NCBI GenBank assembly: GCA_964588985.1
Contig: CAZPQW010000003.1
Span: 96,001-160,000, forward strand
DNA: 64,000 nt
Source of the DNA: an uncultured Solirubrobacteraceae bacterium
Lineage (GTDB): Bacteria; Actinomycetota; Thermoleophilia; Solirubrobacterales; Solirubrobacteraceae
Reading direction: 5' to 3'
Part shown: one piece after another, positions 37,116 through 59,361 of the stretch
Numbering within the stretch: position 1 is the stretch's first letter
How the letters are laid out: the number at the start of each line of letters is the position of its first letter
Notes under the pieces: generated by a model
Seen by the model: the letters and a program-made list of their open reading frames with translations, nothing else
The model's database searches: none
What the model was told of the DNA's origin: nothing
Position numbers and translations under genes: made by a program

Positions 37116-37134
37116 CGGGATAGGCTCACAGGTC

Positions 37135-37926
37135 ATGAAGATCTCCGGCTCCACCATCCTGCTCACCGGCGCCACCGGCGGCATCGGCCACGCGATCGCG
37201 CGCGCGCTCCACACGGGCGGCGCCAAGCTGATCCTCACCGGCCGGCGCACCGACGTGCTCGAGCCGCTCGCCGCGGAGCTGCAGGCGCAAGCCCTCGCGG
37301 TGGACCTCACAGACAGGGCCGACCTCGAGCGGCTGCTCGAGCAGGCGGGCGACGTCGACATCCTGGTCGCCAACGCCGCTCTGCCAGCCGCCGGACGCCT
37401 CGACACGTTCTCCACGACGGAGATCGAGCGGGCGCTCACGGTCAATCTCACCGCGCCGATCCTCATGGCGCACACACTCGCGCCGAAGATGGCGGCGCGC
37501 GGCGCGGGCCACCTGCTGTTCGTCAACTCGCTCTCCGGCAAGACCGCCACCGCTGGCACCTCGCTCTACAACGCCTCCAAGTTCGGGCTGCGCGGCTTCG
37601 CCGCCGCCCTGCGCGCGGAGCTCGTCGACAGCGGCGTCGGCGTCTCCTCCGTCTTCCCCGGCTTCATTCGCGACGCGGGCATGTTCGCGGACGCGAACGT
37701 GAAGCTCCCCCGGGGCGTCGGCACGAGCTCGCCCGAGGACGTCGCGCGGGCGGTGGTGAGCGCGATCGAGCGCAACCGCCGCGAGGTCGACGTGGCGCCG
37801 GCGATGATGCGAGCGAGCACCGTGTTCAGCAACCTCACCCCCGAACTCGCACTCAAAGTCGCCCGCATGGCCGGCTCAGACGAGATCACGAAGGCGATGG
37901 ACGTCGGGCAGCGCGACAAGCGCTGA
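37135..37926 (+). CDS. SDR-family oxidoreductase
   Basis: TGATGGIG, NAA, YNASK. Confidence 0.92.
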   Translation: MKISGSTILLTGATGGIGHAIARALHTGGAKLILTGRRTDVLEPLAAELQAQALAVDLTDRADLERLLEQAGDVDILVANAALPAAGRLDTFSTTEIERALTVNLTAPILMAHTLAPKMAARGAGHLLFVNSLSGKTATAGTSLYNASKFGLRGFAAALRAELVDSGVGVSSVFPGFIRDAGMFADANVKLPRGVGTSSPEDVARAVVSAIERNRREVDVAPAMMRASTVFSNLTPELALKVARMAGSDEITKAMDVGQRDKR

Positions 37927-39748: not shown

Positions 39749-40008
39749 CCTGGCCCGACCGCCCCGCGGAAGCGATCACCACGCCCACTTGACAAACAAC
39801 CCGACTATCAGCTCGAGCTTGCCGATTCGCGGCGTTGGCGATGATCGCTCGAACCCGCTTTTCGTCCGTTGCGGCACCTCGGAGTCCCTGATCCGGATGT
39901 TCGCTCGTCGCGCGTAAAGCGGGAGCGGGACAGCGAACACGTACTCGCCCGCAGCGGTCGGGTAGCAGTGCCGAGACCAAGAGGAGTGCGCTGGTGTACC
40001 ATGCGCGG

Positions 40009-40338
40009 ATGAGCGGCCCAAATTCCGATATCCAGGAGTTGGCCGAACTCGGACAGCGGGCGATCGGTGCGATAACTGATGGAGGCGGACAAGCCGAGAT
40101 GCAGGCCTTCTTTGACCACGCTGAGCGTGTTCCGCGGGACGAACCAAACGACCCCGTACGACAAGAGGCACTCAGCCAGGTCGATTCGCTTGAAGCTGAG
40201 GCAACGCGCATTCTGTCGACGTTGACGCGCAGCGACCGCATCGCGGCGGATGAGCTGGCGCACTTCCGCGCGGGTGTTGAGGACATCGCGATCGCGAGCC
40301 TCCGCGACAGCTTGCCGCCCCCTGAGGACATCACTTAG
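40009..40338 (+). CDS. Hypothetical helical protein
   Basis: TACCAT 6 nt before ATG; amphipathic helices. Confidence 0.55.
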   Translation: MSGPNSDIQELAELGQRAIGAITDGGGQAEMQAFFDHAERVPRDEPNDPVRQEALSQVDSLEAEATRILSTLTRSDRIAADELAHFRAGVEDIAIASLRDSLPPPEDIT

Positions 40339-40385
40339 ACAGAGTTGTTCACTCCGGTGCCGTCGCTGTGACGACGCCGTACTAC

Positions 40386-40865
40386 CTAGGCCGGGTGTTG
40401 AGATCTCAAGAGGAGAGTCATGGTCCGTGATATCGGAGCACTCAGCTCAGGGTTGTAGCCGGCCTGAGTGCCCTGCACATCCGTCGACCCGCTGCTGCAG
40501 TTTGGGCCCGCCCGTCCGGATTGCTCATGGTGGCCGTGGTAGAAGCCGTACCCGTATCCACACTGCCATCCAGAGGGCGACCTGCCCGGCGAACCCTGCG
40601 TGGGCTTCCCGTGCGTGAGGACGTACTCGATCACCCGCCGAGCGGTGGTGCATCGAACGTGTCCCTGGAGCACCGCGACGCTGAAAGACGTCCCGAGCCC
40701 CCGCACCCGACCACAGACCTGTTTCGGAACCACAGCGGCTTTACCGACTGCCCAGCCGGCTTGCCCGCTCACTGCGCCGACCGCCGCCAGACACGCGAGC
40801 GACACCACGGCGATCACCAGAAGGAGCCGGTGAGGTCGCCGCGACATGACAAGGATCCCGCTCAT
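40386..40865 (-). CDS. Secreted 4-Cys small protein (unrelated to the paralog family)
   Basis: ATGA overlap with upstream gene, signal peptide, C...VRC..AR...GWQC...C. Confidence 0.7.
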   Translation of the reverse strand: MSGILVMSRRPHRLLLVIAVVSLACLAAVGAVSGQAGWAVGKAAVVPKQVCGRVRGLGTSFSVAVLQGHVRCTTARRVIEYVLTHGKPTQGSPGRSPSGWQCGYGYGFYHGHHEQSGRAGPNCSSGSTDVQGTQAGYNPELSAPISRTMTLLLRSQHPA

Positions 40866-41983
40866 CCGCGCCTGTAGATCAGCGCCTGATCGGACTGGCT
40901 CACACTCGAGAGGCAAACCGCCTCTTGTGTGCAGGAGAAGAAGTTCATGGCCACGCCCGCCGGGGGCTGGGCGATGGCTTGGAGGCGGACGCCATCGAAG
41001 TACTTGAAGCTGGACGCCGGGCCCAAGGTCGAGACGGTACAGAACGTCGATGAGCCGCACGCCCCAGGGCTCACGTCTATTATTGGGGGGACTCCGTTCG
41101 CGCGCGCAAAGCCGCTCCCGCGATCTATCAGCACAACGCCCGCCAGCTGGCCTGCTCCGATACACAGAGGACCCGTCGCGCAAGCGATGCTGTTCATCGT
41201 GTCATCGCTGCCTTGGTAGTCGGACACTGAAACGTGCGCTGGCGCCGTCCATGAGACACCATTGAAGGTAAAGATCTCCCCTTCGTTCCCCACGATGTGA
41301 CAGTAGGCTTGGGAAGCGCACGCAACCTCAATCAACAATTGGCCTTTGCTTTCGAACGCGGTGCTCATCCAAGCACCGGCTGTGTATCGGAGCACGGATG
41401 CTTCTCCCTGCGCTCCGTCTTGACCGATCGCAAGGCAGTCGCCGTCGGCTGGACACGCGAGGTAGTCAGGGCCGCTACTGATTCCCGTGGGCATGGGCAG
41501 CCTCTGTTCTCGACTCCAACCTGCACCGTTCCATGTGAAGTACGTTTCGGCTCGTGTCATGGCCATGCAGAAGCGAGCCGACGAGCAAGACAGCTCATAC
41601 GAGTCGACCTCGGCCTGCGGAGCTCCAAGCAGCCCGGCTGTCGCAAACTGGCGACCGTCGAATGTCGCCGAGCGGTGGCCTGCGATCACCATGCAGAACG
41701 GCCCCTGGGTACACGAGATCGCCGTGATTTCCCGGGCAGTCGCGTCGCCCGTAGCTCCCAAGGCCTTTTCGATATCCACCGTAGTCCAACCTGCCGCCGC
41801 ACCCGGCTCCCCGGTTGTCCGCACTGCCGCGGCGGATCGAGAAGCAGCACCCCGCGAGCCACCACAGCCACCCACAGTGAGGATCGCCGCCAACGCCACG
41901 AGCGCCAGGCGCAGCCAGCGCGTCGCCACCTTGCTTGTCGTCACCAGCAACCGCGCCACGGGAATCCTTGAGGCGATCGTCAT
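40862..41983 (-). CDS. Lipoprotein with disulfide-rich beta-propeller repeats
   Basis: VGGC lipobox; repeated ISC.....C.......F(D/N)G..W units. Confidence 0.8.
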   Translation of the reverse strand: MTIASRIPVARLLVTTSKVATRWLRLALVALAAILTVGGCGGSRGAASRSAAAVRTTGEPGAAAGWTTVDIEKALGATGDATAREITAISCTQGPFCMVIAGHRSATFDGRQFATAGLLGAPQAEVDSYELSCSSARFCMAMTRAETYFTWNGAGWSREQRLPMPTGISSGPDYLACPADGDCLAIGQDGAQGEASVLRYTAGAWMSTAFESKGQLLIEVACASQAYCHIVGNEGEIFTFNGVSWTAPAHVSVSDYQGSDDTMNSIACATGPLCIGAGQLAGVVLIDRGSGFARANGVPPIIDVSPGACGSSTFCTVSTLGPASSFKYFDGVRLQAIAQPPAGVAMNFFSCTQEAVCLSSVSQSDQALIYRRG

Positions 41984-42678
41984 GGCTGTTCGCCGTCCGC
42001 GACCTTGTGGGCCTGTTCGGGCGTAGCGACGTCCGCAAGCGTCTTGGTTGCGGCTACGTCGGACTGCGCCGCTTCCTTGCAGCCCGTATCCAGCCAGCTA
42101 TGGAGAAAGCTCTGTGCGTTCCCGACGGTCACTTCGTAGTGGCCGTGACCTTCCGGAGTTTCGCCAACGGCGCGGGCGGCGTAGTCTCCTCGCACTTCGA
42201 TACCGGCCGCGTTCCAGTCTGCACACGTGGAGTCCGAAGTGAGCCGCGCCGACTGCGGCTTTGACACCTGGGAAGACGGTGCGGATTGAGCTGACGCTGA
42301 CGACCCGTGCCCGAAGTACTGGCCGACGGTCAGATTCCGGTCAGAGCCGCAGGCCGCGTCCACGCTCAAGCCATACATGGGATTGCCGGGGTCGCTGACG
42401 CCAGGTATTTCGCTGGAGATGCGTACCGCTGCGTCGTGGCGCGCTTCTTCAGATTGTTCGAGGTACACCTCGCAGGACGTGCTCGCTGTGATCTTGTTGC
42501 TGGCGCAGCCGCACATCAGCGCTGCGCCCAGCACCGTGACCAGCCCGGCCGCCGCGACGGATCGCCTTGTCAGCCGTGCACGCCGCGTCACGTTGGTGCC
42601 CGCATTGTTGTCATGAGCCGCGCCAGTCGGTGCCAGCATGGATTCGCGAAGTCCGAGGGACGTAGAACGCATATCCAA
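41980..42678 (-). CDS. Lipoprotein with two tandem Cys-pair helical repeats (start uncertain)
   Basis: LMCGC; ITASTSCEVY..R / LTSDSTCADW..R repeats. Confidence 0.7.
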   Translation of the reverse strand: MDMRSTSLGLRESMLAPTGAAHDNNAGTNVTRRARLTRRSVAAAGLVTVLGAALMCGCASNKITASTSCEVYLEQSEEARHDAAVRISSEIPGVSDPGNPMYGLSVDAACGSDRNLTVGQYFGHGSSASAQSAPSSQVSKPQSARLTSDSTCADWNAAGIEVRGDYAARAVGETPEGHGHYEVTVGNAQSFLHSWLDTGCKEAAQSDVAATKTLADVATPEQAHKVADGEQP

Positions 42679-42682
42679 GAGA

Positions 42683-44137
42683 TCAGGGCGTAAGCCGCTG
42701 GACTAGCTTGAAGGCGTGTTCTTCATTCAGTTCTTCAATGCCGTTAGGCAGAACGGACTGGCACTGCGGCCCGGAACTCGTGTAGGAGATCTGCTTTCCA
42801 GTGTGCAGGTTAAGCGTCGCGTATTGTCCGTTGATGAACATAAGGGTCTCGCTGCTTGAGACTCCGCAGACCGGTCCAGCCTCTTTTTCTTCGTTCGGTA
42901 GTTCCTTGAGTGACCACAGATGCTGGGCCGACCGGTCATCGAGTGCTATGAGGGCTTTGCCGCCGCTCGGTTCTTCTGCATATAGGAGGAGTACCCCGCC
43001 TCCGTCAGCGACGAGCTCCGGCGGAGTACCGCGGGCAGCTTGGTAAGGAGCGCGCCATTTCCACACGAGGTGCATGCTCGGAAGCGCATATGCGGCGACA
43101 CTCGCCTGACTCTCTTCGGGCGTTTCGGCCAAGATCACGCGACTGCCGTCACTAGATATAGCTGCCGGATCGCCCGGGAAATAGCCCGGTGACGCGAGGG
43201 GCACCATCTGATGTGAGACATCGTCAACGAAATGACGGCTACGTGTGACCGAGAAGCTTCCCAGTGACGCCCCGGTCGCCGGACTAGTTACATGTACAGC
43301 CGAGACCGGCTGGTCAGGGGGCGAATCGACCACGTAGCTACCAATAGTGCCGAGCAGCTGCTTGTCATGGCGAATAGCTCCGTCGGTGAGGTTGATGACC
43401 TCCCCGCCGGTCGCCTGACAGCTATTGCACGCGCCGTAGGGCACTTCCAGACTCCAAACTCCCCAGCGCGCGTCCGTGGTCGCCCCAAATGACGTCGGGG
43501 AAAGATTGGCGTACGGGTTACATCCAATCCCCTCGGTGCCGGGCGACACGACGTTGGCGCTCCAGACGTGCGCTCCGCTGGAAGCGTTCCACGCATCCAG
43601 GGTGGCTGAGTGGAGTTCCGGGTGAATTCCTTCGGCGGGCTTTGACGCTATGTGCTCGGTGAGGATGATGCGTCCGACACTGGGGACCGCCAAGTCAAGG
43701 GCCCCGCACGTCGTCGTCATAGCGTCAGACTGGATTTCCGCGAGCTGCTGCCCGGCTGGTCCGAATGTGATCACGCCGGTCGATGATTGGGGAGAGGAGG
43801 CGCCAAAGTAGCCCACGATCGCGAATCCCGCAGAAGGGTACGGCGATCCCGAAGTGCTGGTGATCGCCTTATCTGTCTCGTCGCCTTCCCTGGCAAGCAA
43901 CATAGTGCCGGCAGCCGGCGGACTGGGGCTCGACTGCGTCGACGACGGCATGGGTTCAGCGATCGATCTGACCGACGCCGTGCTCCTCGTAGAGCTGGTC
44001 ACATGAGGCTCGCCACTCGAAGACGACGAGCCACCCGACCCACAGCCCGAAAGGGCGAGCGCGGACGCAGCGGCGCCCAGCAAACCACGGCCTATCGAAC
44101 ATCGTCTGCCCACTCCCACCCCTCCCTGTCGAGGCAT
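42683..44137 (-). CDS. Lipoprotein with PQQ-like beta-propeller
   Basis: LALSGC lipobox; AWNASSGAHVWS, ALDDRSAQHLWS repeats. Confidence 0.75.
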   Translation of the reverse strand: MPRQGGVGVGRRCSIGRGLLGAAASALALSGCGSGGSSSSSGEPHVTSSTRSTASVRSIAEPMPSSTQSSPSPPAAGTMLLAREGDETDKAITSTSGSPYPSAGFAIVGYFGASSPQSSTGVITFGPAGQQLAEIQSDAMTTTCGALDLAVPSVGRIILTEHIASKPAEGIHPELHSATLDAWNASSGAHVWSANVVSPGTEGIGCNPYANLSPTSFGATTDARWGVWSLEVPYGACNSCQATGGEVINLTDGAIRHDKQLLGTIGSYVVDSPPDQPVSAVHVTSPATGASLGSFSVTRSRHFVDDVSHQMVPLASPGYFPGDPAAISSDGSRVILAETPEESQASVAAYALPSMHLVWKWRAPYQAARGTPPELVADGGGVLLLYAEEPSGGKALIALDDRSAQHLWSLKELPNEEKEAGPVCGVSSSETLMFINGQYATLNLHTGKQISYTSSGPQCQSVLPNGIEELNEEHAFKLVQRLTP

Positions 44138-44389
44138 CGGAGCATAGCGGCAACCGCAATCTGGCTGTTGGCCTACTTCGACGGACTTGATCTTCCTCTC
44201 GAATCGAGCTAGGCGTGTGTCCAGTCCCGAGTCAGAACACTCGCTGCAGCAAGGACGGGTGATGCCCATAGCCACCGTGTCCTAGCCGCGCGGAGTGCGG
44301 AGCCTCGGTTGAGGCGATCACAACGGCAACGTCTGTGCCGGGCGTCGTTGTGCGGTTAGGCTTCGCTGACCATCGCGTCTGAGCCCTCC

Positions 44390-45778
44390 GTGTTGATCAT
44401 CTCTCAAGCTCAGGCCGCAGAGATTAAGACGCTGCTGCCAGCCGTTGACGCGCCCCGGCGGGCGGATCAGCATATGGCTCGCGCCCGGCTGCGGAGTATC
44501 GGGTATCCGCTCTCCGCCGCGCCGACCGTAACCGACTATCAGGCGTTTGTCGCCTGCGGAGAGATCCGCGTCGATGGAACCGGGCGCGCGCGGATCGTTC
44601 GGCAGACGTCGACGCGGGTGTTCAAGGTCTCGGTCGGAGTCAGCGGCTTTCCCGTTGACCCGACGTGGTGGGCGTTTGATCAGCGCTATCAGTGGCTTGG
44701 CCGGCAGCCCCACCAGGTCGGCTCCGGTGATCATCTGTTTGCGATGGCGGTCGACCGTTGGCGCAGCGCCGTGGTAGGTCTGTACGAAGCCGTGTCACCT
44801 GGTGCTCAGGCTCTCCCTGGTTCTCCCGATCCGAAGCGCTGGCCGTTCGCGTTGGGCGTGCGGCCGCTAGCGGCGATCCTGCCTCCGGATGCCGAACGGG
44901 TCCCCGGGCTTTATGGGCCGCAGAACCCAATACCGGAGCACGTCAACAACCCGGACCATCAGACGGCGCTCTACGCGGCCGTGAGCAACAGCCCCCCTGC
45001 CCCATCTCCCACCACTGTCGAGGCTCGAATCCAGGAGGTGCAGTGGCGCGACTTGGGTGACGACGTCCTTCAGGCTGTCTACGAGCTCGGCAGCGAGGCG
45101 CGATTTGGCGAGGTGCTGGAACGGGCGATCGCGATCGGCCGATGGACCCCGGAGGAGCTCGGCGTGCTGGCCTGGTACACCAGCGCCAATGCCGAGCCTT
45201 CTCACATCCGCACAGTCGTGCGGCAGGCGATCGGCTTTGAGGAGAGCTTGACTCGGCGGATCCACCGCGACTACAGCAGCGGCCCGTACCGGATCGTCGG
45301 TGACTATGCGCTGGTCGGCAGCGGGTTCGGCTCCACGTATCGGCCAGCCAGCGGACACGAAGCGACACAGCCGGACGACGCAGTGCTCAAGATTGACCTC
45401 GCGGCACTTGAGGCGGCGACCGAACGACACATGAAGCTGCAGGACGACCTGGCTGAGGCATTGGAGGCACGGGGGATCGACCCTCGGTCGCCATCCGGCT
45501 CCCAGCCGTTCTTTGACCTCGCCTTCGAGCACGACGGCCTCCGCTACGTGGTCGAGGTCAAGAGCGGCAACCCGGCAAGCCAGCAGCAGGTCCGCTATGG
45601 CGTCGGTCAGGTCTTGGAGTATGCCCACCTGCTCAGCAGCGCGGACGCTTCGGTGATTCCGGTGATCCTGATCGAGAGCGTCCCGCCGATGCCATGGGTG
45701 GATCTGGCGGGGCAGCTCGGCGTCCGGGTGCTTGTCGCGGCTGAGCTTGATTCCGCGTTGGACACATTGCTTCAGTAA
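44390..45778 (+). CDS. Putative modification-dependent restriction nuclease (EVE/PUA-like + wHTH + PD-(D/E)XK)
   Basis: GDHLF..VVGLYE..RWPF EVE-like region; Mrr-N-like helix region; FDLAF..VVEVKS..QVRYGVGQVLEY. Confidence 0.7.
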   Translation: MLIISQAQAAEIKTLLPAVDAPRRADQHMARARLRSIGYPLSAAPTVTDYQAFVACGEIRVDGTGRARIVRQTSTRVFKVSVGVSGFPVDPTWWAFDQRYQWLGRQPHQVGSGDHLFAMAVDRWRSAVVGLYEAVSPGAQALPGSPDPKRWPFALGVRPLAAILPPDAERVPGLYGPQNPIPEHVNNPDHQTALYAAVSNSPPAPSPTTVEARIQEVQWRDLGDDVLQAVYELGSEARFGEVLERAIAIGRWTPEELGVLAWYTSANAEPSHIRTVVRQAIGFEESLTRRIHRDYSSGPYRIVGDYALVGSGFGSTYRPASGHEATQPDDAVLKIDLAALEAATERHMKLQDDLAEALEARGIDPRSPSGSQPFFDLAFEHDGLRYVVEVKSGNPASQQQVRYGVGQVLEYAHLLSSADASVIPVILIESVPPMPWVDLAGQLGVRVLVAAELDSALDTLLQ

Positions 45779-45833
45779 ACGGTGTGTCCGGCTGCGGCGC
45801 TCTGCGTAACTGTCTGACCGATCCCTCCCGTAG

Positions 45834-45969
45834 CTTTCCGACCGCGCCGTCCTCAGGCGTGTCTCCCCATCAACGTCTGGCCCACGCTTGGACGCTGAGG
45901 AGCAAGGGCCCAAGGCTCGGGGAAGGTTCACCCATTCCGTGATCGTGAGCGTGGGACGCGATCGGAAAG
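45834..45969 (+). ncRNA. Candidate structured cis-regulatory leader RNA
   Basis: Four complementary segment pairs, one occluding the RBS of 45979; see findings. Confidence 0.55.
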
Positions 45970-45978
45970 GTGGGCTGT

Positions 45979-46431
45979 ATGACTGAGTACTCCGGTCTTA
46001 AGCGCCAGGTCAGGGCGCGGATGGCGATCACTGGCGAGCCGTACTCGGTGGCTCGGCGAGCTATCCAGAACGCGGAAGTGGCCGTGTCTCAGCAGGAATT
46101 GAAGCGGCTGATCGCCGACATCCAGGAGTTTCTGGCCGGGCGCGGCCGCGTGATGGTGCCCCACGACTTCACGGTCGAGTCGGTCAAGGACGACACGGCG
46201 GTGGTGCGGATGCCAGTGATCTGGAAGCCCCGGAAGGACATGATCATCGCGCTTGCGAGCGACACGCCGGCCGCCAAGAACGTGGATGAGCTGCGCAGCC
46301 TGTTCGAGCGCGGGCTGGGCTCCGGCGAGTATCTGCCCAACGCCAGGCTCGCGGATTGGGACGCCGTCATCGAGGACGGGCCGCGGCCCGGCAAGCTCGA
46401 TTGGACGGTTCGGGTCCGCGTCAGCGCCTAG
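45979..46431 (+). CDS. Hypothetical protein with N-terminal KRQVRARMAITGEPYSVARR module
   Basis: RBS GAAAGG; basic helical N-terminus of a kind seen in actinobacterial proteins with variable C-termini. Confidence 0.75.
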   Translation: MTEYSGLKRQVRARMAITGEPYSVARRAIQNAEVAVSQQELKRLIADIQEFLAGRGRVMVPHDFTVESVKDDTAVVRMPVIWKPRKDMIIALASDTPAAKNVDELRSLFERGLGSGEYLPNARLADWDAVIEDGPRPGKLDWTVRVRVSA

Positions 46432-46933
46432 CCACCGAGGTTGAGCGAGTGCGGGCGGCCAGCGCCGCCCGCACTCGTCCCGCAGTCGAACGTCCGCTCG
46501 GCCCGGTTGTTGGCGTGGGTGCGGGCGTCCTCTTCAGCCACGTTCCACGCAACTGGCGGCGGGGAGCGCCCTCAACGGTGTGGGCGCGCCATGCATTGCA
46601 GGATCGTCGCTGAGGTCAACTCGCTGTATGCCTGCGAGACACGAGAGCAGGGCGGTAATCGATCGCCGGTGCCTTCCCTCCTCCTCCTCGCCAATTGCAG
46701 GACTGCGGCGCCTGCTTCGCCCCGGCGAAGCGGAAGCCAGCGTCGGCACCGACGGCGTCGCTGCTTTGGACGAGTTGCAGTCGTCCTGGCGTCCACTCTG
46801 CAGACGCTCGCTTATGCTGGAGAAAGTGGCGTGCTACCCCGGCCCGCACCGCCCGTATGTTCGAACTGGGTTAGTGGTCGCACGTGGGGAAGACACGCGT
46901 GGCGACCTGCGTGGGTCCGTTAGGGTTGGCGGG

Positions 46934-48196
46934 ATGGCGAATATCGAGTTGCGCAAGCGGTTCTTCGGAGCGGAGGTTGTGGGCAGCATCGATCTCTCAT
47001 CGATGCCGACGCTTAGCTGGAGCGAGCACCACGCGCTCCTTCGGATTGGGAGCACGTTCGAGGATCTCGGTATGGACGTCCGATCTGTGGCCCGGGCGAT
47101 TGACGGATTGGAGGGGGAACTTGGCCTCAGGCTCGACCACCAGTCGCTGCTCCTGGACCGACAGGTCGATCTTCTTGCGGATATTGCCCAGTCGCTTCGC
47201 ACGCCGGCGCGAGTTCGTGCAGCCGAGCGGCTATCTAGCGTCGGGGAGCTGCTGCGCCGTAAACGCTATGAGCGTGCGCTTGCCGCTGCCGAAGAGGCGA
47301 TCGAAGACGACCCCAACAACCCGGCAGGATTCATAGCTGCGGGCTGGGCACAGATTGGTCTTGAGCATCTCGATGCGGCCCGCGCTCTCTTCACGGAGGC
47401 TGCTGAGGCAAGCGACGTTGACGCGCGTAGCGCGGCGTTCCGCCAGGCTGCCCGTCTGACTCTGGCGCTCGACGGACCAGAAGCAGCCCTTACTCGACTC
47501 GGCGAGGTCTCCGGTGCAAACAGCGTTACTGAGCGTGCGGCGGTGACCTACGACCGCGCCGTCTACCTGGCGGACCTTGGCGACACCGCTGCCGCTCTGG
47601 TGAACCTGCTTGACGCTGGTCGCGCCGAGCCGAGCTTCCTGTTCGCGGCGCTCGCGGATCCGCTACTTGCGTCGCACCTCGTCATCATCGAGGCTGCATC
47701 TGAAGAGCTCGCCGCGCGCCAACGGGCGGTCGTCAGAGACATCGCCCGGTATGACGAACTCATTCAACAGCTAGGCGAGCTCACGGCGCGACTTGAAGGC
47801 GAGAACAAGACGCTTCGAGTTGCGGGCAGAAACGAGCGCCAGCAGGTTCTGGGCAAGCTCGTGGATGTAGCAACGCGTTGTTCGAGCGAGAGATCAGATC
47901 TGGTAGCCCACGCCGAGCGTGCCCTACAGGTGCAGCAGTTGAGTGCTGCCATCAACGACATGGAGGAGACTCTGGAACACGCCAACGCTCGTGAGAGTGA
48001 GCTGTTTGAGTCTGCACGCCTCGTCATAAAGCTTGAACGGGCAGCTCTAGACTTCGCTCAACGAGAAGATGCCTGGCCGACGAAGTTGAAGGACGGAACC
48101 TGGGAGATCACAAAGAAGCGACGGTTCGCGCAACAGATCACGTGGCGCGCAACGCTCGACGATCGCGGCGAGCCTGCAATCGAGCTAGCGAACTAA
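46934..48196 (+). CDS. TPR-containing coiled-coil protein
   Basis: ALAAAEEAIEDDPNNPAGFIAAG TPR; TAGGGT 7 nt before ATG. Confidence 0.75.
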   Translation: MANIELRKRFFGAEVVGSIDLSSMPTLSWSEHHALLRIGSTFEDLGMDVRSVARAIDGLEGELGLRLDHQSLLLDRQVDLLADIAQSLRTPARVRAAERLSSVGELLRRKRYERALAAAEEAIEDDPNNPAGFIAAGWAQIGLEHLDAARALFTEAAEASDVDARSAAFRQAARLTLALDGPEAALTRLGEVSGANSVTERAAVTYDRAVYLADLGDTAAALVNLLDAGRAEPSFLFAALADPLLASHLVIIEAASEELAARQRAVVRDIARYDELIQQLGELTARLEGENKTLRVAGRNERQQVLGKLVDVATRCSSERSDLVAHAERALQVQQLSAAINDMEETLEHANARESELFESARLVIKLERAALDFAQREDAWPTKLKDGTWEITKKRRFAQQITWRATLDDRGEPAIELAN

Positions 48197-48300
48197 CGCA
48201 AGGTCAGAAGGTGGCCTATGACCTGGGTGTGGAGTGGAGTGGCACCCGTTTGACGGCCTCTTGATGGCTTTAGTGGCTTGGGTGCGAAAGCGCTGCAGCG

Positions 48301-49404
48301 TCAGAGCTCGATCACGCTGCGGATGCCCGCCTGGGCCTCCATCAGCTCGAAGCCACGGTTGACTTCGTCGAGCGTGAGGCGGTGCGAGATGAACGGGTCG
48401 ACGTCGATGTCGCCGGCGAGATAGCGGCGCACGAGCGCGGGCACATCTTCGCGGCCCTTCAGGCCGCCGAAGGAGGATCCGCAGATCCGCCGGCCGGTGA
48501 TCAGCAGGCGCGGCACCACGTCGAGGGTCTCGCCGCGCCCCGCGACGCCGCACACCGTGCACAGCCCCCACCCCATCCGCGCGGCCTCGACCGCCTGACG
48601 CATCACCGCGACGCTGCCGGTCGCCTCGAAGGTGTAGTCCGCGCCGAAGCCGCCGGTCATCTCGAGGATCGTCTCGACCGTGTCGGGCCCGCCGATCAGC
48701 GTGTCGGTGGCGCCCTGTCCGCGCGCCAGCTCCAGTCGCGCGGGCGCCATGTCGACGCACACGATCCGCTCGGCGCCCTGCAGCCGGCAGCCGGCGACCG
48801 CCCCGAGGCCGACCATCCCCGCGCCGAACACCACGCACGTGGAGCCGGCGCGCACCGCGGCGGTCTTCATCGCGGCCCCGAGCCCGGTGGAGAGCCCGCA
48901 CGCGAACAGGCACGCGCGGTCGAGCGGCGCCTCGGGGTCGATGCGCGCGAGCGCAATCTCCGGCATCACGGTGTACTCCGCGAACGTCGAGGTGCCCATG
49001 AAGTGGCGCAGCGGCTCCCCCGCGCGCGACAGGCGCGTGGTGCCGTCGGGGAGGTAGCCGAGGTTCTGCTGCTCGCGGATCGCGAGGCACAGGTTGGTGA
49101 GCGGGCTGACGCAGTGCACGCACTCGCCGCACTGGGGCGAGAACAGCGTCACCACGTGGTCGCCCTCGCTCAGCAGCGTCACATCGCTGCCGACCCGCTC
49201 CACCACGCCCGCGCCCTCGTGGCCGAGCACCGTCGGCGCGTAGCCGGAGGGGTCGACGCCGGAGGCGGTGTAGAGGTCGGTGTGGCACACGCCGCACGCC
49301 ACGAGACGCACGAGCACCTCCTTCGGCCCTGGCTCCGCGAGCTCGACCTCTTGGACTACGAGCGGAGCGGCGAACTCCTCGAGCACCGCCGCGCGGATCT
49401 TCAT
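48301..49404 (-). CDS. Zn-dependent alcohol/formaldehyde dehydrogenase (class III-like)
   Basis: GVCHTD, GHEGAG, C..C..C..C, HFMGTSTF, GAGMVG. Confidence 0.93.
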   Translation of the reverse strand: MKIRAAVLEEFAAPLVVQEVELAEPGPKEVLVRLVACGVCHTDLYTASGVDPSGYAPTVLGHEGAGVVERVGSDVTLLSEGDHVVTLFSPQCGECVHCVSPLTNLCLAIREQQNLGYLPDGTTRLSRAGEPLRHFMGTSTFAEYTVMPEIALARIDPEAPLDRACLFACGLSTGLGAAMKTAAVRAGSTCVVFGAGMVGLGAVAGCRLQGAERIVCVDMAPARLELARGQGATDTLIGGPDTVETILEMTGGFGADYTFEATGSVAVMRQAVEAARMGWGLCTVCGVAGRGETLDVVPRLLITGRRICGSSFGGLKGREDVPALVRRYLAGDIDVDPFISHRLTLDEVNRGFELMEAQAGIRSVIEL

Positions 49405-50744
49405 CGGCTGGCGGTCGGGCTGGAGCCACCGACCCTCGCGAGCAGGCGTTCCTCGCCGGAGAGCGTCTGGCTGGTCGCGGCGAGGATCTCCACCTCGGTC
49501 AGCTCTCCCGACTGGGCGAGTCCGCCGAAGTTGACGACCTTGTTGTGGCGGGTGCGCCCGCGCAGGCGCTCGGGGTCGTTGCGCGAGGCGCCTTCCACGA
49601 GCACCTCCACCGTGCGCCCGACGAAGCGCTCCGCGCGCTCCTTCGCTCGGCGCTGGACGATCTCGAGCAGCCGTTCCATTCGCTCCACCTTCACGGGGTG
49701 CGGCACGAGGCCCTCGGTCAGCTCGGCCGCGTCGGTGCCGCGACGCGGGGAGAAGATGAACGTGAAGGCGCTGTCGTAGCCGACCTCCTCGGCCACTTCG
49801 AGGGTCTCCTGGAAGTCCTCCTCGGTCTCGCCGGGGAAGCCCACGATGATGTCGGTGGTGAGCGCCACGTCGGGCACGTGCTCGCGGATCATCGCCACGC
49901 GATCCATGTAGCGCGCGCGGTCGTAGGTGCGGCGCATCGCCTTGAGGATGCGGCTGGAGCCCGACTGCAGCGGCAGGTGGATGTGCTCGCACACGCTCTC
50001 GAGCTCCGCGTGCGCGCGCACCACGTCCTCGCGCATGTCCTTCGGGTGCGGGCTCGTGTAGCGGATGCGCTCGATCCCGTCGATCCCGTCGAGCAGCCTC
50101 AGCAGCTCGGAGAAGCTCGCCCGCGGCGCCAGGTCGCGCCCGTAGGAGTTGACGTTCTGCCCGAGCAGCGTGACCTCCCTCACGCCGTCGGCGACCATCC
50201 CCTCGACCTCCGCCACCAGCTCACCTAAGGGCCTGCTGACCTCGCGTCCGCGAGTGGAGGGAACGATGCAGTAGGAGCACGCGCAGTTGCAGCCCACGCT
50301 GATCTGCAGCCACCCCTGGAAGGCGCGCGCGCGGCGTGCCGGCAGGTGGCCGGTGAAGCCCTCGAACTCGAAGAAGCCCTGTGCGGTCAGCGAGTCGCTC
50401 GTGAGGAACTCCGCCAGCTTGTGCACCTGCCCGGGCCCGAACGCGACGTCCACGAACGGGAAGCGCTCGAACACCTCGTCCTTGAGCGACTGCGCCCAGC
50501 AGCCGCCCACGCCCACGACCGTCCCCGGTGTTTCCCGCTTGAGCCTCTTCGCCTCGCCGAGGTGCGAGATGAAGCGCGCGTCGGCCGTCTCGCGGATCGA
50601 GCACGTGTTGAACAGGATCAGGTCCGCCTCACTGCGCGCGGGCGCCTCGCTGTAGCCGAGCGACTCGAGCATCCCCTTCATCCGCTCGGAGTCGTGCTCG
50701 TTCATCTGACAGCCGAACGTCGTCAGGTGGTAGCGCTTTGCCAT
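49401..50744 (-). CDS. miaB: tRNA-2-methylthio-N6-dimethylallyladenosine synthase
   Basis: TFGCQMN, NTCSIRE, GCNCACSYC, TRAM domain. Confidence 0.96.
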   Translation of the reverse strand: MAKRYHLTTFGCQMNEHDSERMKGMLESLGYSEAPARSEADLILFNTCSIRETADARFISHLGEAKRLKRETPGTVVGVGGCWAQSLKDEVFERFPFVDVAFGPGQVHKLAEFLTSDSLTAQGFFEFEGFTGHLPARRARAFQGWLQISVGCNCACSYCIVPSTRGREVSRPLGELVAEVEGMVADGVREVTLLGQNVNSYGRDLAPRASFSELLRLLDGIDGIERIRYTSPHPKDMREDVVRAHAELESVCEHIHLPLQSGSSRILKAMRRTYDRARYMDRVAMIREHVPDVALTTDIIVGFPGETEEDFQETLEVAEEVGYDSAFTFIFSPRRGTDAAELTEGLVPHPVKVERMERLLEIVQRRAKERAERFVGRTVEVLVEGASRNDPERLRGRTRHNKVVNFGGLAQSGELTEVEILAATSQTLSGEERLLARVGGSSPTASR

Positions 50745-50814
50745 GGCTGCACAAGGGTACCGGCGCAAGCTCCTGTCGTTCGTCGGCATCGCCACCCGTC
50801 GCTACTCTTTTGGT

Positions 50815-51517: not shown

Positions 51518-53815
51518 CTACGACTCGAACATCATGGCGACGAGGGCGTGTAGGTCGTCGGAGTGCTCTACGCGTGGTTCCATCGCGGTGCGAGGTAGTA
51601 CAAGGCTCCAGCCCTCCTTGCCGTCCGCCAAGCCTCGGCTGAGGTCAACGGTCCCGCGTACGACGAGCGCCATTTTCGGCGACTTCAGCGCGAAGAGCTT
51701 GCCTCTGACCTTCGCGTCCAAGAGGTGGTGGCCCGTCGTGTCCACAGCCCAGCACACGCCTTTCTTCCAAATGAGGAAGTCGGGGTAGAACGTGAGGGAG
51801 TCGCCGACCTTCTTCGGCAGCGGCACGCCGTAGCCCTGGCTTCCCGTCGTGGGGTTGCGGACCCAGATCACGCCTTTCACGCGGTCAATGGCGTGCGCGA
51901 ACGGCGCCTCGTCTTTGTTGAAGTCGTTCCGTGAGTACCCGGCATGCGCGGCATGCACAAACGAGATCATGTCCTCGCTGCGGGGCCTGTACTCGCTTAC
52001 GGTCCATGTCAGCCGGTCGGGGTCCGGGTCCTCCTCGTAGTCCACGCGTTGCTCGTAGTAGTCCACGATGCGCGCCGCGAGTGCCACTAGGTCGTCCTGC
52101 GCCTGCGAGCCATGGCAGCTGTACTGCTCAAACGCCGGACCGTTGAATCGGTCCGGATGAATCGCGATCAAGCAATTACGGTTGCGCTGAAGGATTCGCT
52201 GGTGGACGAACCTGCCGTTCCTAGTGCGGGCGCTGCGCAGCACGGCTATGTCCTCGTACTCCTCGCTGCCCTCCGTCAGCGACACAACGGCCTTGCGACC
52301 CGTTCCCGGCGCTTCCAGATCCTCGTCGTCCCATTTGCGTGACGATTGGCTGCGGAGTTCTTTCCTCGGTGTTGTCATGTCTGGTGCCTTCAGTGCCCAG
52401 CGCGTGAGCTTGAGTTGTTTCGCTCCGCGCTTCACCGGCACGGGTGTCAGCGGCTCCTTGCGCGTCTTCACGCGCACCGTGGCGAACGCGGGTTCGTCTT
52501 CGGGCGCGTACAGCCGCAGCTCGGCCTTCAAGTCTGAGACGACGGTTTCGTAAGCCGACGTTGGTGTCTCGAGAATCAGGGTGGCGGTATTCAGCTCTTC
52601 AGCGGCGAAGCGTCGGGCGCGGGGCTGCCGCAGCACTCGGCCAACGATCTGGCGTATGCGCACAAACGATTTCGTGACGCCGTCGAAATAGCAGACGTAT
52701 GCCTCGGGGTCGTCCCAGCCCTCCTGCAGCGCTTGGTTGAAGATGATGTGTCGGTAACGAGGCTCAAGTTGGCTCAGGCTAGCGACGCGCTCCGCGCCCT
52801 CCGGCAGCTCCTTCGTGTCCGTATACACCGCGATCTCGTCCGCGGGCACGCCGCGCGAGAGCAGATGACGCCAGATCGCCACGGGCCGAGCCTCCTCGTT
52901 GGAGCCGCGCCGAGGATTGCTCTTCTCCACGACGTAGATCGCGCGCGGCGTTATGCCCGCTTCCTCCGCGTCGGTGGCGGCCTGCACGCGTTCCAGCGCA
53001 GCGAGTGCGCCGTCTAGGCTCTCCTCGGAGCCGCTCCGGTAGTCCACGACCTCAATCGTCGTCTTCAGAAGGTTCGCGTCCACCACGTCACGCGTCCTGA
53101 TCGGGACTTTTCCAGCGGCCAGCAGTGCTTTCGTCTCCTCTCCCTGGTTCAGCGCCTCCTCCCATTTCACGAACAGGTCGTTCATGAGCGGCGTCGCCGA
53201 TGCCATGAAGAAGCCGCGCGGTTTGAGAGCAGCGAGCTGGTCCAGCTGCACTTCGCTTTGGTTGTGGCTCTCGTCAGACACGATCCAGAGCGGTCGCCTC
53301 AGGTTCTCACGTAGCTGGTAAAACGGGGCGCCCTCGCCGGCCCAGTCCGCCTGTTCTCGGCGGAGGCGCAGGCGGGCATCACCGTCTCCTACACCGGCCT
53401 CGGCCTCGTTCCACGAGGCCACGGTCAATACCCAAATCGTGACCCCTTTCCTACTGTCAATCAGCTCGCGCCATGCAAGCTGGCTCGGGATGTCACGGAT
53501 CACCTTCGCGCCCGGCGGCAGCAGCGAGCGGTACTTGCCGTTCAGGTTCTCGTAGGTCTGCTCCACGACAGCGCTGGATCGCGTCGTCCAGAAGATCACC
53601 GCATCGCCGAGTCCTGCGACCGTACCAGCGAGCACCGGCGTCTTCCCGGAGCCCGTGACGGCCTTCAGCTGCCCCAGGAATGGGATCGGGGATTCGCCGT
53701 ATTCCGGCGGGTGGCCGCGCCGGACGGCATACGCCACCCAGGACAGCGCGGCTTCCCTGAGCGACTGGGCGGCTTCTTCCTGGAACGGGAAGAGTCGGAA
53801 GCTATCCACCGTCAT
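51518..53815 (-). CDS. res: Type III-like restriction subunit (SF2 helicase + PD-(D/E)XK)
   Basis: TGSGKT, DESH, LQEGWD, QIVGRVLR, FYPDF..AVDTTG. Confidence 0.85.
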   Translation of the reverse strand: MTVDSFRLFPFQEEAAQSLREAALSWVAYAVRRGHPPEYGESPIPFLGQLKAVTGSGKTPVLAGTVAGLGDAVIFWTTRSSAVVEQTYENLNGKYRSLLPPGAKVIRDIPSQLAWRELIDSRKGVTIWVLTVASWNEAEAGVGDGDARLRLRREQADWAGEGAPFYQLRENLRRPLWIVSDESHNQSEVQLDQLAALKPRGFFMASATPLMNDLFVKWEEALNQGEETKALLAAGKVPIRTRDVVDANLLKTTIEVVDYRSGSEESLDGALAALERVQAATDAEEAGITPRAIYVVEKSNPRRGSNEEARPVAIWRHLLSRGVPADEIAVYTDTKELPEGAERVASLSQLEPRYRHIIFNQALQEGWDDPEAYVCYFDGVTKSFVRIRQIVGRVLRQPRARRFAAEELNTATLILETPTSAYETVVSDLKAELRLYAPEDEPAFATVRVKTRKEPLTPVPVKRGAKQLKLTRWALKAPDMTTPRKELRSQSSRKWDDEDLEAPGTGRKAVVSLTEGSEEYEDIAVLRSARTRNGRFVHQRILQRNRNCLIAIHPDRFNGPAFEQYSCHGSQAQDDLVALAARIVDYYEQRVDYEEDPDPDRLTWTVSEYRPRSEDMISFVHAAHAGYSRNDFNKDEAPFAHAIDRVKGVIWVRNPTTGSQGYGVPLPKKVGDSLTFYPDFLIWKKGVCWAVDTTGHHLLDAKVRGKLFALKSPKMALVVRGTVDLSRGLADGKEGWSLVLPRTAMEPRVEHSDDLHALVAMMFES

Positions 53816-55685
53816 CCGGGGCGGTTAGCAACGCGGTCTCCAGCGCCTCAACGGCGTCGGCGTCACCGTGGAGGGCAGCATCGTCGTCGTCCGTAATCTG
53901 AAGCGCCGCCAGGATCTCATCGGGGATCTGGCAGAAACGGAAGGATTCGGTCTCACCGATCTCGCACGTCGCGGCGTATGCCCGCAGCGGCCGACGTAGG
54001 CCCTTCGCCTTCGTCTCGTCGAACATCGCGACGAGCACGTCGCGTGTGATCGCCGACTCCTTCCTTCCGTTCCAGCACAGACAGATCGCCTCCTGTCGCG
54101 AGTTGTAGCCTATGACGTACTGGCCGGCGACACGCGTGATGCCGCGGCCCTTGCCCGTGGCATCCGTGTGCATGATGAGGTTCGCAATTGCCTCGCGCTC
54201 CAGCTCCAGGATCGCGCCCCTGTTAAGGCGACGACCCGTGCTTTCAAACGTGAAGCCACCGGGCAGCTTCTCCTTCTGGATCGCCGTCTTCAAACGTGGC
54301 GCGATGAAGGTGCGGCAGTAGCGGTCCTCGCGCGTGCCCTCCTCAATGAGGATAAATCGGCGCGAGCCACCGTCGGCGGCGTTGAGCCGCATCACGGCTT
54401 GCCCTGTCGTTCCGGAGCCAGCGAACGGGTCCAACACGAGCGCGTCGGAGTCGCCTGCGAAGCCGATCAAAGTCTCAATTAGGGTTGTGGGCTTCGCGTT
54501 GGGGAAACGGCCGGCGTCTTTCGGAAGTAGCCTCTTCAAGTCGGCTGCGCCGCCACGCGAGCCCAGCTCAATCACGCCACGCAGCGGTGGCCGAAGCTCC
54601 CGTAGGTACTTCTTGAGCTGGACGAGCCGGCGCGCATCCCTCGGATAGATGATGCGCCCTTCCGACTCCAGGCGCCGCATCGTCTCCTCAGGGAAGCGGT
54701 AACCCCGCCCCGGCTTCTTGTGCACGAGTCCGGTCTCCGGGTTCACAACGTCGTAGACGTAGCCGCCAGGGTGCGGGTTCTCGGTCGTGCGGTTCGCGGC
54801 GTACGGGCCACGCTCGTCCACGAAGGAGTAGCGGGCGAGGTCGCCGAGGTCCACGATGCCTGACTCCTCTGCGGACTGCGTTGACGCGCCATACGCCGCA
54901 ATGTGCTCCTTGATTGCGGCCTGGTACGCCTTCTCAATCACCGCGACCTCGCCGCGGTGCTTCTTCTTCAGCTGTTCGTACGTCTGCAGCAGCCAGAGCT
55001 GCGCCGGACTGTCGCCGGACCACACCCGAGGCACCTCCTCCTCGCGCTTCGCGTAACAGAGGATGTACTCGTGACCGACCGCGATCCTCGTCGGATTGTT
55101 GTCTGCTGCCTGCTTCCAAACGACGACGCCGAGGCGGTTACGCTCACCGAAGATCTCGTCCATGAGCATGCCGAGTCGGAAGAGCTCGATGTCGTTGATG
55201 GAGACGAAGCAGATGCCGTCCTCAGCGAGTAGCTGCCAGACGAGCCAGAGGCGCGGGCCGATGAAGTTCAGCCACTTGGTGTGTCGGCCGCCGTCCTCGT
55301 TGTTCACGTACACCATGTCGTCGGCATCGGCGTTCGGGTCGTGGAAGCGCGCGTCGGAGTAAGCGAAGTCGCTCTTCCCAGTGTTGTACGGCACGTCTAG
55401 GTAAGCAACGTTGACCATGCCCTGGTACTGCGAGCGCAGCGACACCATTACTTGAAGGTTGTCGCCCTCAATCACGCGGTTGTCCCGCGGCTTCCCGAAC
55501 GACAGCTTCGGCACGGCCTCCAGCATGCGCGGCGCCGGCATCCTCGTCCGGTAGCCCTTCCGGCCCTCCCAGTGGAGGTACATGCCGGGACCGCCGGGGC
55601 GGCCCGCGGCGCGCGTCACGGGGTCCAGCGAAACCCGACCGTTCGTGGGCTTTGTGGTCGCGGCTTTCTTGCGTGCTGTTGCCAT
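53802..55685 (-). CDS. mod: Type III-like N6-adenine DNA methyltransferase (beta class)
   Basis: IEGDNL, YLDVPYNTG, HEYILCYAK, FPNAKP, LDPFAGSGTTG. Confidence 0.9.
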   Translation of the reverse strand: MATARKKAATTKPTNGRVSLDPVTRAAGRPGGPGMYLHWEGRKGYRTRMPAPRMLEAVPKLSFGKPRDNRVIEGDNLQVMVSLRSQYQGMVNVAYLDVPYNTGKSDFAYSDARFHDPNADADDMVYVNNEDGGRHTKWLNFIGPRLWLVWQLLAEDGICFVSINDIELFRLGMLMDEIFGERNRLGVVVWKQAADNNPTRIAVGHEYILCYAKREEEVPRVWSGDSPAQLWLLQTYEQLKKKHRGEVAVIEKAYQAAIKEHIAAYGASTQSAEESGIVDLGDLARYSFVDERGPYAANRTTENPHPGGYVYDVVNPETGLVHKKPGRGYRFPEETMRRLESEGRIIYPRDARRLVQLKKYLRELRPPLRGVIELGSRGGAADLKRLLPKDAGRFPNAKPTTLIETLIGFAGDSDALVLDPFAGSGTTGQAVMRLNAADGGSRRFILIEEGTREDRYCRTFIAPRLKTAIQKEKLPGGFTFESTGRRLNRGAILELEREAIANLIMHTDATGKGRGITRVAGQYVIGYNSRQEAICLCWNGRKESAITRDVLVAMFDETKAKGLRRPLRAYAATCEIGETESFRFCQIPDEILAALQITDDDDAALHGDADAVEALETALLTAPDDGG

Positions 55686-55775
55686 CTTGCCTCCGATTCT
55701 CGCCGATTCCGCGGCGTCGCGGCCCCCCAGAGCCACGCCGAGCTAGCCACCTACCGGTTGTCCGTCTCGACCCAG

Positions 55776-57519: not shown

Positions 57520-57550
57520 ATGCTGCTAGCATTGATAGCGTTGACAGCAA
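57520..57550. promoter_or_regulatory. FitA-type operator (TGCTAGCA / TGATAGCG / TGACAGCA)
   Basis: Three TG-N-(T/C)AGC half-sites upstream of the RHH antitoxin. Confidence 0.55.
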
Positions 57551-57564
57551 CCCAAGGAGTACCG

Positions 57565-58266: not shown

Positions 58267-59361
<1,095 letters not shown>

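Follow-up and report, generated by a model that had tools for sequence, protein, structure and literature searches.

In Escherichia coli, ribosomal-protein operons are autoregulated through leaders such as the pseudoknot of S15 (rpsO) and the long-range pseudoknot of L20 (rpmI-rplT); here the leader mimics the rRNA site to which a single protein family binds. The arginine-rich N-terminal peptide of phage lambda N binds the boxB/nutL hairpin, which lies in the leader of the N gene, and represses translation of N itself. Kissing loops occur in known riboswitches, among them guanidine-II (mini-ykkC), guanidine-IV (mepA) and the purine riboswitch. The present analysis concerns a stretch of 64,000 nt ('the window') on contig CAZPQW010000003.1 of an uncultured Solirubrobacteraceae bacterium, and within it the leader, approximately 135 nt long, of a gene for a 150-residue protein. 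The leader belongs to a conserved family of structured leader RNAs of the Actinomycetota that is coupled to a peptide of about 30 residues at the N terminus of the encoded protein. Of this we are nearly certain. The RNA family is uncatalogued in Rfam 15, and the peptide has no Pfam or NCBIfam model.

A peptide-pattern scan of species-representative genomes gave 60 loci. About 55 of these matched in residues 1 to approximately 30 only, always at the start of the open reading frame (ORF). The 130-190 nt upstream of 55 genes that had been found by the peptide alone were conserved at the nucleotide level and could be aligned with the leader in the window. Alignment A3 held 59 leaders; alignment A6 held 26, from the window's clade and a second subtype (MAFFT without structure). 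Two RNA models were used: R1 for subtype 1, and R2 for subtype 2, built from the upstream regions of class-wide peptide loci, from which the second subtype had emerged.

In order, the leaders share hairpin H1, hairpin H2 with its closing helix Pa, a junction rich in purines, hairpin H3, a segment that varies (hairpin H4 in subtype 2), and hairpin H5 directly before the Shine-Dalgarno (SD) sequence. The shared junction was GAGGACAAGG or GGAGGCAAAGGGG, with GGAGCAAGG as the form in the window; for the family it is written GGAG-CAAGG. The leader in the window has H1, H2, H3, H5, Pa and a kissing loop between H2 and H5, placed as follows.

45831-45836, plus strand: -10-like box TAGCTT (TAnnnT), from the alignment of leaders.
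45844-45860, plus strand: hairpin H1, GCGCC (45844-45848) with GGCGT (45856-45860), loop GTCCTCA.
45863-45902, plus strand: helix Pa closing H2, CTCC (45863-45866) with GGAG (45899-45902), register uncertain by 1-2 bases.
45874-45894, plus strand: hairpin H2, CGTCTGG (45874-45880) with TTGGACG (45888-45894), including three G.U pairs; 7-nt loop CCCACGC (45881-45887).
45881-45887, plus strand: 5' strand of the kissing loop, CCCACGC, with its partner GCGTGGG (45949-45955) in the H5 loop.
45895-45907, plus strand: purine-rich junction CTGAGGAGCAAGG, its columns invariant or nearly so in A3 and A6.
45906-45918, plus strand: hairpin H3, GGGCC with GGCTC, loop CAA.
45929-45972, plus strand: basal extension of H5, CACC (45929-45932) with GGTG (45969-45972) and TTCC (45935-45938) with GGAA (45964-45967), predicted from the minimum free energy (MFE) fold.
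45941-45963, plus strand: hairpin H5, GATCGTG (45941-45947) with CGCGATC (45957-45963); the loop AGCGTGGGA holds 45949-45955.
45964-45970, plus strand: SD sequence GGAAAGG, 8 nt before the ATG at 45979.

In A3, 95.0% of the cells in these helices were paired, versus 30-46% when the 3' partners were slid, and both sides changed at 10 pairs. In A6 the corresponding values were 76.4% versus 36-49%, and 25 of the 42 pairs changed on both sides. H1 was GGCAG/CTGCC, GGCCG/CGGCC or GGCGG/CCGCC in other clades. Among 74 leaders there were 47 distinct pairs of H2 arms, with covariation in both alignments, and 38 distinct pairs of H5 arms. H3 was fully paired (100%) in A3, with a U-A to C-G change in the window's clade; in A6 it was 92.9% paired, and one of its pairs was GC in 9, AU in 7 and CG in 7 leaders. 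The counterpart of Pa in subtype 2, CCUCC/GGAGG, was 95% paired, with U-A and C-G exchanged both ways. In the window Pa was assigned by homology only, and its register in R2 was shifted by 2-3 nt. The junction counterparts in other clades were GACGAGGACAAGG and GCGGAGGCAAAGG.

One G.U pair in H3 was invariant in all 59 leaders. Since G.U pairs would read A.C on the opposite strand, the constraint is strand-specific. The orientation of the leader and its distance to the start codon were fixed. A preliminary description of this locus had proposed a structured leader RNA; a conserved one is supported by the alignment of the upstream regions of homologues and the covariation of the helices.

The loops of H2 and H5 were complementary to each other in nearly every leader, in at least 10 sequence types. 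These were GCCCGCG/CGCGGGC, CCCACGC/GCGTGGG, CCTACGC/GCGTAGG, CTCACGC/GCGTGAG, CCCGGCG/CGCCGGG, CCCACGTCAC/GTGACGTGGG, TCCCAGC/GCTGGGA, CCCCAGC/GCTGGGG, CCCCAGT/ACTGGGG and CCCTAGC/GCTAGGG. When loops alone were swapped among 6 types, the own partner was the best in every row and every column (mean 8.2, minimum 7.0, versus 4.8, maximum 6.5, for the others).

The association of the RNA with the peptide was followed in both directions. From peptide to RNA, the leader stood before all 11 peptide ORFs in five genomes. R1 gave E<1e-5 in seven of these and 3.6e-4 in one; two further matches were weak but exactly positioned, and one leader was recognized only by eye. Among 27 class-wide peptide loci, 25 had an R1 or R2 match in position, most of them being R2 seeds; of the non-seed loci, 9 of 13 matched. 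L134 lies at a contig end, and L136 had no RNA match. R2 matched the non-seed loci L129, L131, L132, L133, L135, L101 and L102, and also cross-matched subtype 1. From RNA to peptide, all nine genome-wide R2 matches in five genomes (approximately 41 Mb) ended at the start of a peptide ORF.

Within the window's class, R1 found one copy in the window's own genome and nothing in 150 further genomes sampled. Five genomes of the major clade had 1-3 copies apiece, and R1 matched 11 of 151 genomes of that order and 2 of 151 across that class; it missed most of the subtype-2 leaders. The peptide profile A5 matched 44 of 401 sampled Actinomycetes genomes (42 of 399 without the unpublished G693 and G702) and 7 of 301 genomes of the window's class. 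One leader copy adjoined an integrase on a plasmid of Streptomyces sp. NBC_00989 (R1, E 5.6e-12); it is L100:1824-2006, before the gene for WP_331732329.1. A divergent copy in Nonomuraea gerenzanensis was missed by R1, but was found by R2 (E 4.8e-19) and also by eye. On the G537 contig, two near-identical leaders (L079 and L087) occupied opposite strands at a distance of about 12 kb. The peptide ORFs behind them were shortened to 14 and 36 residues, one of them with a TAG. Possibly these are decayed copies, or the flanks of something mobile.

The gene itself consists of the following parts. Its ORF starts at the ATG at 45979 with MTEYSGLKRQVRARMAITGEPYSVARR.

45979-46068, plus strand: basic two-helix N-terminal peptide MTEYSGLKRQVRARMAITGEPYSVARRAIQ, codons 1-30.
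46069-46431, plus strand: C-terminal part of about 120 residues and the stop codon; Pfam, NCBIfam and PADLOC gave no match.
46445-46478, plus strand: terminator-like 15-bp G+C hairpin right after the stop codon, without a T run.

The consensus of the peptide was MTxxKAxKxAIRxRMAxTGEPYSVARRA. Profile A5 found it in 3170 protein clusters (of 1.84 billion representatives), nearly always at residues 1-31 or 3-33. Among 55 sequences K8, R12, R14 and G19 were invariant, through 2-5 synonymous codons each, and for each of the conserved basic residues K8, R12, R14, R26 and R27 there were 2-6 synonymous codons. Since the search pattern itself fixed residues 20-28, these carry no weight as evidence. Because invariant residues are encoded by several synonymous codons, selection is seen to act on the peptide at the protein level. 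The AlphaFold 2 model placed helices at residues 3-18 and 22-31 at modest confidence (local predicted local distance difference test score, pLDDT, about 70; 53 for the whole protein).

The peptide had no profile match to helix-turn-helix (HTH), SAP/HeH, Rho_N or ribbon-helix-helix proteins in Pfam, NCBIfam or the PDB sequences. Pfam searched with 25 peptides at E<=10 matched only single members (E 0.05-0.08), NCBIfam gave no match, and the best PDB match had E 0.3. There was no match in the phage collection and no usable match in the ESM Atlas. In five database homologues, P0009-P0012 (136 residues each) and P0016 (169 residues), the annotated start was Met15. Judged by the conserved codons 1-14 and by where the leader lies, these starts appear to have been mis-called.

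Behind the peptide, the proteins differed. Among 25 subtype-1 ORFs there were 14 alanine-zipper coiled coils, one GNAT domain, nine without a Pfam match and one (L009) with only a weak match to Borrelia_P83. The GNAT domain of L051 is fused to the peptide ORF itself. Another 25 peptide ORFs (20 of subtype 2, plus L100, L101, L109, L121 and the relatives of L129) gave 12 with DUF4287 and/or AHSA1 (SRPBCC), three with DUF2087, two with BtrH_N and DUF4872, and eight with none. In the 74 top database matches of at least 140 residues, 67 lacked a Pfam family, and the C-terminal parts fell into 49 groups unlinked by BLAST. The preliminary description had given, as unverified, a basic N-terminal module fused to many unrelated C-terminal domains in Actinomycetota, and this proved correct. 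Its proposal of a portable module of RNA and peptide also gained support, since leader and peptide travel together; RNA binding by the peptide and a role in defense, also suggested there, are hypothetical. The RNA and the approximately 30-residue peptide have moved jointly onto many unrelated C-terminal domains.

The genes next to the peptide ORFs varied between genomes, and elsewhere they were ordinary metabolic genes. Downstream of L019, L034 and L010, at 10-100 nt and on the same strand, there were small enzyme genes (glyoxalase, Acetyltransf_CG and PNPOx-like).

The preliminary description had drawn the leader as a double pseudoknot with four pairings. All four exist at their coordinates, with the letters correct. 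In P1, CTTTCCGACCGCG (45834-45846) and CGCGATCGGAAAG (45957-45969) pair at 12 of 13 positions. P2 has the core TCCTCAG (45850-45856) with CTGAGGA (45895-45901). The third is TCCCC/GGGGA, and the fourth is CCCACGCT (45881-45888) with AGCGTGGG (45948-45955). The relatives upheld only the fourth, which is conserved and covarying. The TCCCC/GGGGA pairing was invariant in the window's clade and had no counterpart in other clades; by homology, its CTCC pairs with GGAG at 45899-45902 to form Pa.

Natural variants favored H1 and H5 over P1 and P2. In L006, G45844>A breaks P1 and converts a G.U of H1 to A-U. In L007, G45858>A breaks P1 and converts a U.G of H5 to U-A. In L005, C45848>T together with G45856>A changes C-G of H1 to U-A, and T45860>C changes G.U of H1 to G-C; G45856>A and T45860>C also break P2 at two pairs, and the 3' arm of P2 is unaltered. 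Judged by these variants, P1 is not the conserved structure. It retains 11 of 13 pairs in L005 and L007, and so could form in transcripts reading through from the upstream gene. A single kissing-loop pseudoknot replaces the double one. Sequestration of the ribosome-binding site by P1 was likewise not sustained: if the site is sequestered, its partner would be 45929-45938 beneath H5. Further natural variants, such as the one in run X23 (discussed below), come from contigs of four sequencing runs, among the matches listed.

The inferred RNA start bears on P1 as well. TAnnnT occurred at one aligned position in all 59 leaders of A3, and 23 of 29 subtype-2 leaders had it at their 5' edge, against a background frequency of 0.0013 per position. 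Close relatives had TATCAT, TATGCT, TATCCT and TATCTT. Transcription most likely starts at approximately 45842-45845, as predicted from this -10 box. The caveat in the preliminary description, that TAGCTT at 45831 could be a -10 box, was thus well founded, and most of P1 is removed by it: if 45831-45836 is the -10 box, most of the 5' arm of P1 (45834-45846) would be promoter and spacer. A scan for the sigma-70 consensus gave no promoter, and the sole terminator-like site lay inside the upstream gene.

The MFE fold of the RNA from the inferred start (-56.3 kcal/mol) already included H1, H5 and the extension that would bury the SD sequence. The homology-constrained fold had -50.7 kcal/mol, and the kissing-loop duplex adds -12.6 kcal/mol. 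In other clades, the 3' arm of H5 runs into the first bases of the SD sequence, for example CTTGGCGGG/CCCGCCGGG. Codons 2-4 in the window, ACTGAGTAC (45982-45990), are complementary to GTACTCGGT (46041-46049), which encodes PYSV, and a helix within the peptide-coding region is possible.

Two other observations were made in the leaders L009-L065. First, a 9-10-bp pairing of CTGCCCGCT (the 3' arm of H1 and the next bases) with GGCGGGCAG (the 5' arm of H5) is available. It would exclude H1 and H5, and is a candidate second conformation. Second, Thr codon 2 was ACT in 35 of 54, although ACC prevails elsewhere (38 of 52 at codon 18), and a conserved GTCA(T/G)G, able to pair with CATGAC at the start codon, stands in the otherwise variable spacer. 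The ACT codon and the GTCA(T/G)G motif hint at sequestration of the start codon in subtype 1.

The gene in the window is accessory, as indicated by its single copy in its own genome, its presence in 2 of 21 genomes of the same genus, and its location in a stretch of lower G+C between miaA and miaB (0.62-0.67 around the gene, versus about 0.70 elsewhere). Searched against 5.8 billion proteins, the whole protein had 19 matches at E<=0.001, mostly close and full-length. Twelve of these had 83-92% identity, and the weakest covered only part of the protein. The hairpin at 46445-46478 (-38.6 kcal/mol, z -4.9) was equaled by none of 200 shuffles; from this hairpin after the stop codon, the gene looks monocistronic. 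The interval 45831-46478 looks like a self-contained transcription unit made of a -10 box, an approximately 135-nt leader, a 150-codon gene and a terminator-like hairpin.

The lower-G+C stretch (39900-48200), flanked by miaA (36168-37559, minus strand) and miaB (49401-50795, minus strand), is full of ORFs without family and resembles a variable island in which the gene sits. For the upstream ORF (44390-45778, 462 residues), Pfam, NCBIfam and PADLOC gave no match. In L005, L006 and L007 its 3' end is found in synteny with the gene, and the two may therefore act jointly. A 7-bp inverted repeat, GGACACA/TGTGTCC (45760-45789), spans the stop codon of the upstream gene and precedes the -10 box; it may be a weak terminator or a processing hairpin.

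PADLOC 2.0 gave no match for the ORFs at 45979-46428, 44390-45775, 46580-48193 or 42683-44272. At 5-12 kb from the gene there are a VapBC pair and a type III restriction-modification system. The latter consists of a methylase (53802-55736) and a weak match to REase_III (51518-53815), and PADLOC matched it as a system at 51518-55733. It is followed by a DUF5996 gene, a FitA/PIN (VapBC-type) pair at 57520-58226, and recA at 58267-59361.

We interpreted the leader as acting on translation initiation, which is probable. It would hold or release the SD sequence beneath H5, with the kissing loop between H2 and H5 locking the fold. The N-terminal peptide of the encoded protein would be the effector and so provide autogenous feedback, possibly acting on its own mRNA while emerging from the ribosome. 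The peptide is the best candidate since it is the only feature common to the regulated genes. Its assignment as the effector is tentative, and we hold it to be somewhat less likely than its opposite. The reading as a whole, an uncatalogued leader family and peptide with translational and perhaps autogenous control, comes close to an even chance without quite reaching it. A more specific form is a self-addressing module, in which the nascent 30-residue peptide with its two basic helices would clamp the kissing-loop leader of its own mRNA. This form would account for 1-4 near-identical copies per genome without cross-talk, and for RNA and peptide never being separated. As it stands, it is rather unlikely.

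Several results weigh against autogenous translational control by this leader, or against parts of the evidence for it. The MFE of the leader was no better than that of shuffled sequences (z -0.27 for 45834-45985, +1.19 for 45779-45995). The R2 alignment misplaced H2 and H5 of the window, so the helices of the window rest on manual homology assignment. The H5 extension that would bury the SD sequence had no covariation support in the window's clade, and the variants in L007 and X23 weaken it. The A6 covariation score (0.271 versus 0.170 in shuffles, reached by none of 500) overstates significance because of shared ancestry; a fairer guide comes from the slid controls and from how many distinct pair types occur. 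Shared ancestry also dominated a mutual-information scan. RNAalifold recovered only H1, H3 and one 4-bp stem on the mixed A3, and only Pa and H3 on A6. A swap control that took the best duplex anywhere in a wide window was weak (8.1 versus 6.7, standard deviation 1.9).

The association with the peptide had exceptions too. At L109 and L112 there was only a short hairpin leader, with H1-H3 absent. The ORFs at these two loci (MTTNRGRKDVIRDRMAATGESYNVAARNL) are preceded by a hairpin of an anti-SD with an SD sequence, CCTCCTGG/CCAGGAGG, with a loop containing GCGTGAA, possibly a reduced version of the element. Two more peptide ORFs, one in G559 and one in G860, gave no match to the RNA at the thresholds used, and were not inspected. 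One of 25 peptides had a faint match to HTH_23 and another to HTH_31 (E about 0.05). Equally, the peptide may act as a small domain for targeting or for binding DNA.

The main rival is a leader that senses a small molecule, an ion, temperature or a shared trans-acting RNA or protein, with the peptide doing a separate job, for example in DNA binding, in targeting or as a degradation signal, and inherited along by adjacency. We consider it unlikely. The complex conserved pseudoknotted fold with strongly conserved unpaired junctions is like riboswitch aptamers, and such a structured, aptamer-like 5' leader with an adjacent platform (covarying helices, kissing loop, SD sequence at the base of H5) is what was found here. 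The SD sequence lies in a helix beside the fold, and the alternative pairing in the major clade, which would exclude H1 and H5, is switch-like. On the other hand, the downstream genes share no ligand-linked function: their C-termini are diverse, there is no metabolic theme, only the first 30 codons are common, and the neighbors vary. Furthermore, in all nine genome-wide matches the RNA was never seen without the peptide ORF, and adjacency hardly explains an intact pair across at least 49 unlinked C-terminal groups. The consistent position of the element upstream of the gene for its putative binding protein is the pattern of autogenous leaders.

A general expression element (a 5' stabilizer, a ribosome stand-by site or enhancer, or a thermosensor) without a specific effector, spread before many genes by recombination as a cassette of promoter, leader and N-terminal tag, is improbable. 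It would fit the pairing by Pa of an anti-SD-like CCUCC with an SD-like GGAGG, and the -10 box that belongs to the unit, together with the terminator-like hairpin that it has in the window. The low-G+C variable island, the integrase neighbor on the Streptomyces plasmid and the presence in 2 of 21 genus genomes also agree with such a cassette. However, a 7-base kissing loop kept through at least 10 compensatory types together with four covarying helices exceeds the needs of a stabilizer, and the strict pairing with a peptide conserved at the protein level would be left unexplained.

We regard as very improbable a lasting RNA-protein particle, in which the leader, perhaps cut from the mRNA, would hold or inhibit the protein through the peptide, in the manner of a type III toxin-antitoxin (TA) system. 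The tight association of RNA and peptide in both directions, C-terminal domains that vary like effector domains, and the defense genes within 5-12 kb in the window would suit it. Nevertheless, the RNA is continuous with the SD sequence and the start codon and has no repeat array: Tandem Repeats Finder found none in 45300-46700 save a trivial 1.9-copy match of 11 nt at 46468-46488, contrary to the type III TA analogy raised in the preliminary description. The gene and its neighbors had no PADLOC match, no nuclease- or toxin-like domain was seen among the C-termini scanned, and the neighbors in other genomes are ordinary metabolic genes. With respect to ToxN, AbiQ and CptN, the 150-residue protein had no Pfam or PADLOC match.

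Conservation at the DNA level (an operator, a recombination site or a mobile-element end), or chance stems in G+C-rich sequence, is already disfavored and hardly credible, for all that the MFE in the window is not better than that of shuffles in G+C-rich sequence: the helices keep pairing through strand-specific G.U, both sides change together, and orientation and distance to the start codon are fixed. Retron, CRISPR, insertion sequence element RNA, T-box, and an upstream ORF or attenuator were also dropped: no Rfam model matched, the leader lacks a U-tract terminator, and the lengths of upstream in-frame sequence vary.

With Rfam 15 (4227 models), four weak matches were obtained in 44000-48000 at E<=10, none in the leader. 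This is one of the checks that the preliminary description had proposed. The only guanidine-II match (45436-45485, E 6.1) was inside the upstream gene. At E<=1, 11 subtype-1 loci gave one unrelated match, and 12 subtype-2 loci gave eight matches, none on the leader. In the literature covered, which excluded supplements and subscription journals, neither the peptide strings nor a matching RNA motif was found; on RNA motifs there were only generic surveys, and DUF4287 appeared in one unrelated paper.

If autogenous translational control by the leader and its peptide is true, a widespread and elaborate leader RNA joins the known cis-regulatory RNAs of the Actinomycetota, together with a new small protein domain that is in no curated library. 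The unit of inheritance is unusual, in that an RNA fold and the first 30 codons move jointly before unrelated proteins, and the co-evolution of RNA and peptide can be tested. It would also be a compact, transferable part for control of expression in high-G+C bacteria. If the self-addressing form is true, a private translational feedback loop acting in cis would come with the module to whatever protein is placed behind it. The Streptomyces plasmid copy and the divergent copy of N. gerenzanensis make bench tests practical.

Among the known systems, the ToxIN-type type III TA systems resemble this locus in having a structured RNA just upstream of a protein that possibly associates with it; they differ in that here there are no tandem repeats and no endoribonuclease family, and the RNA is the mRNA leader itself. 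As in the kissing-loop riboswitches, two hairpin loops pair and lock the fold of a regulatory 5' leader; unlike in these, the leaders have no Rfam match and the downstream genes are functionally incoherent. With the S15 and L20 leaders the element shares a pseudoknotted 5' leader by the SD sequence, upstream of the gene of the proposed binder, and, as proposed here, control of translation initiation. The difference is that here the RNA goes with a 30-residue peptide on many unrelated proteins, and that no Rfam leader matches. To lambda N and boxB there is no relation in sequence, and the peptide had no phage match. BoxB is one small hairpin and N an antiterminator, whereas here four hairpins and a kissing loop are involved. 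What the two have in common is a short basic peptide at the extreme N terminus, encoded by a gene whose 5' leader carries an RNA element. The lambda pair is a possible model of how the peptide might recognize RNA and repress its own synthesis. We use the ribosomal-protein leaders and lambda N/boxB as working analogies.

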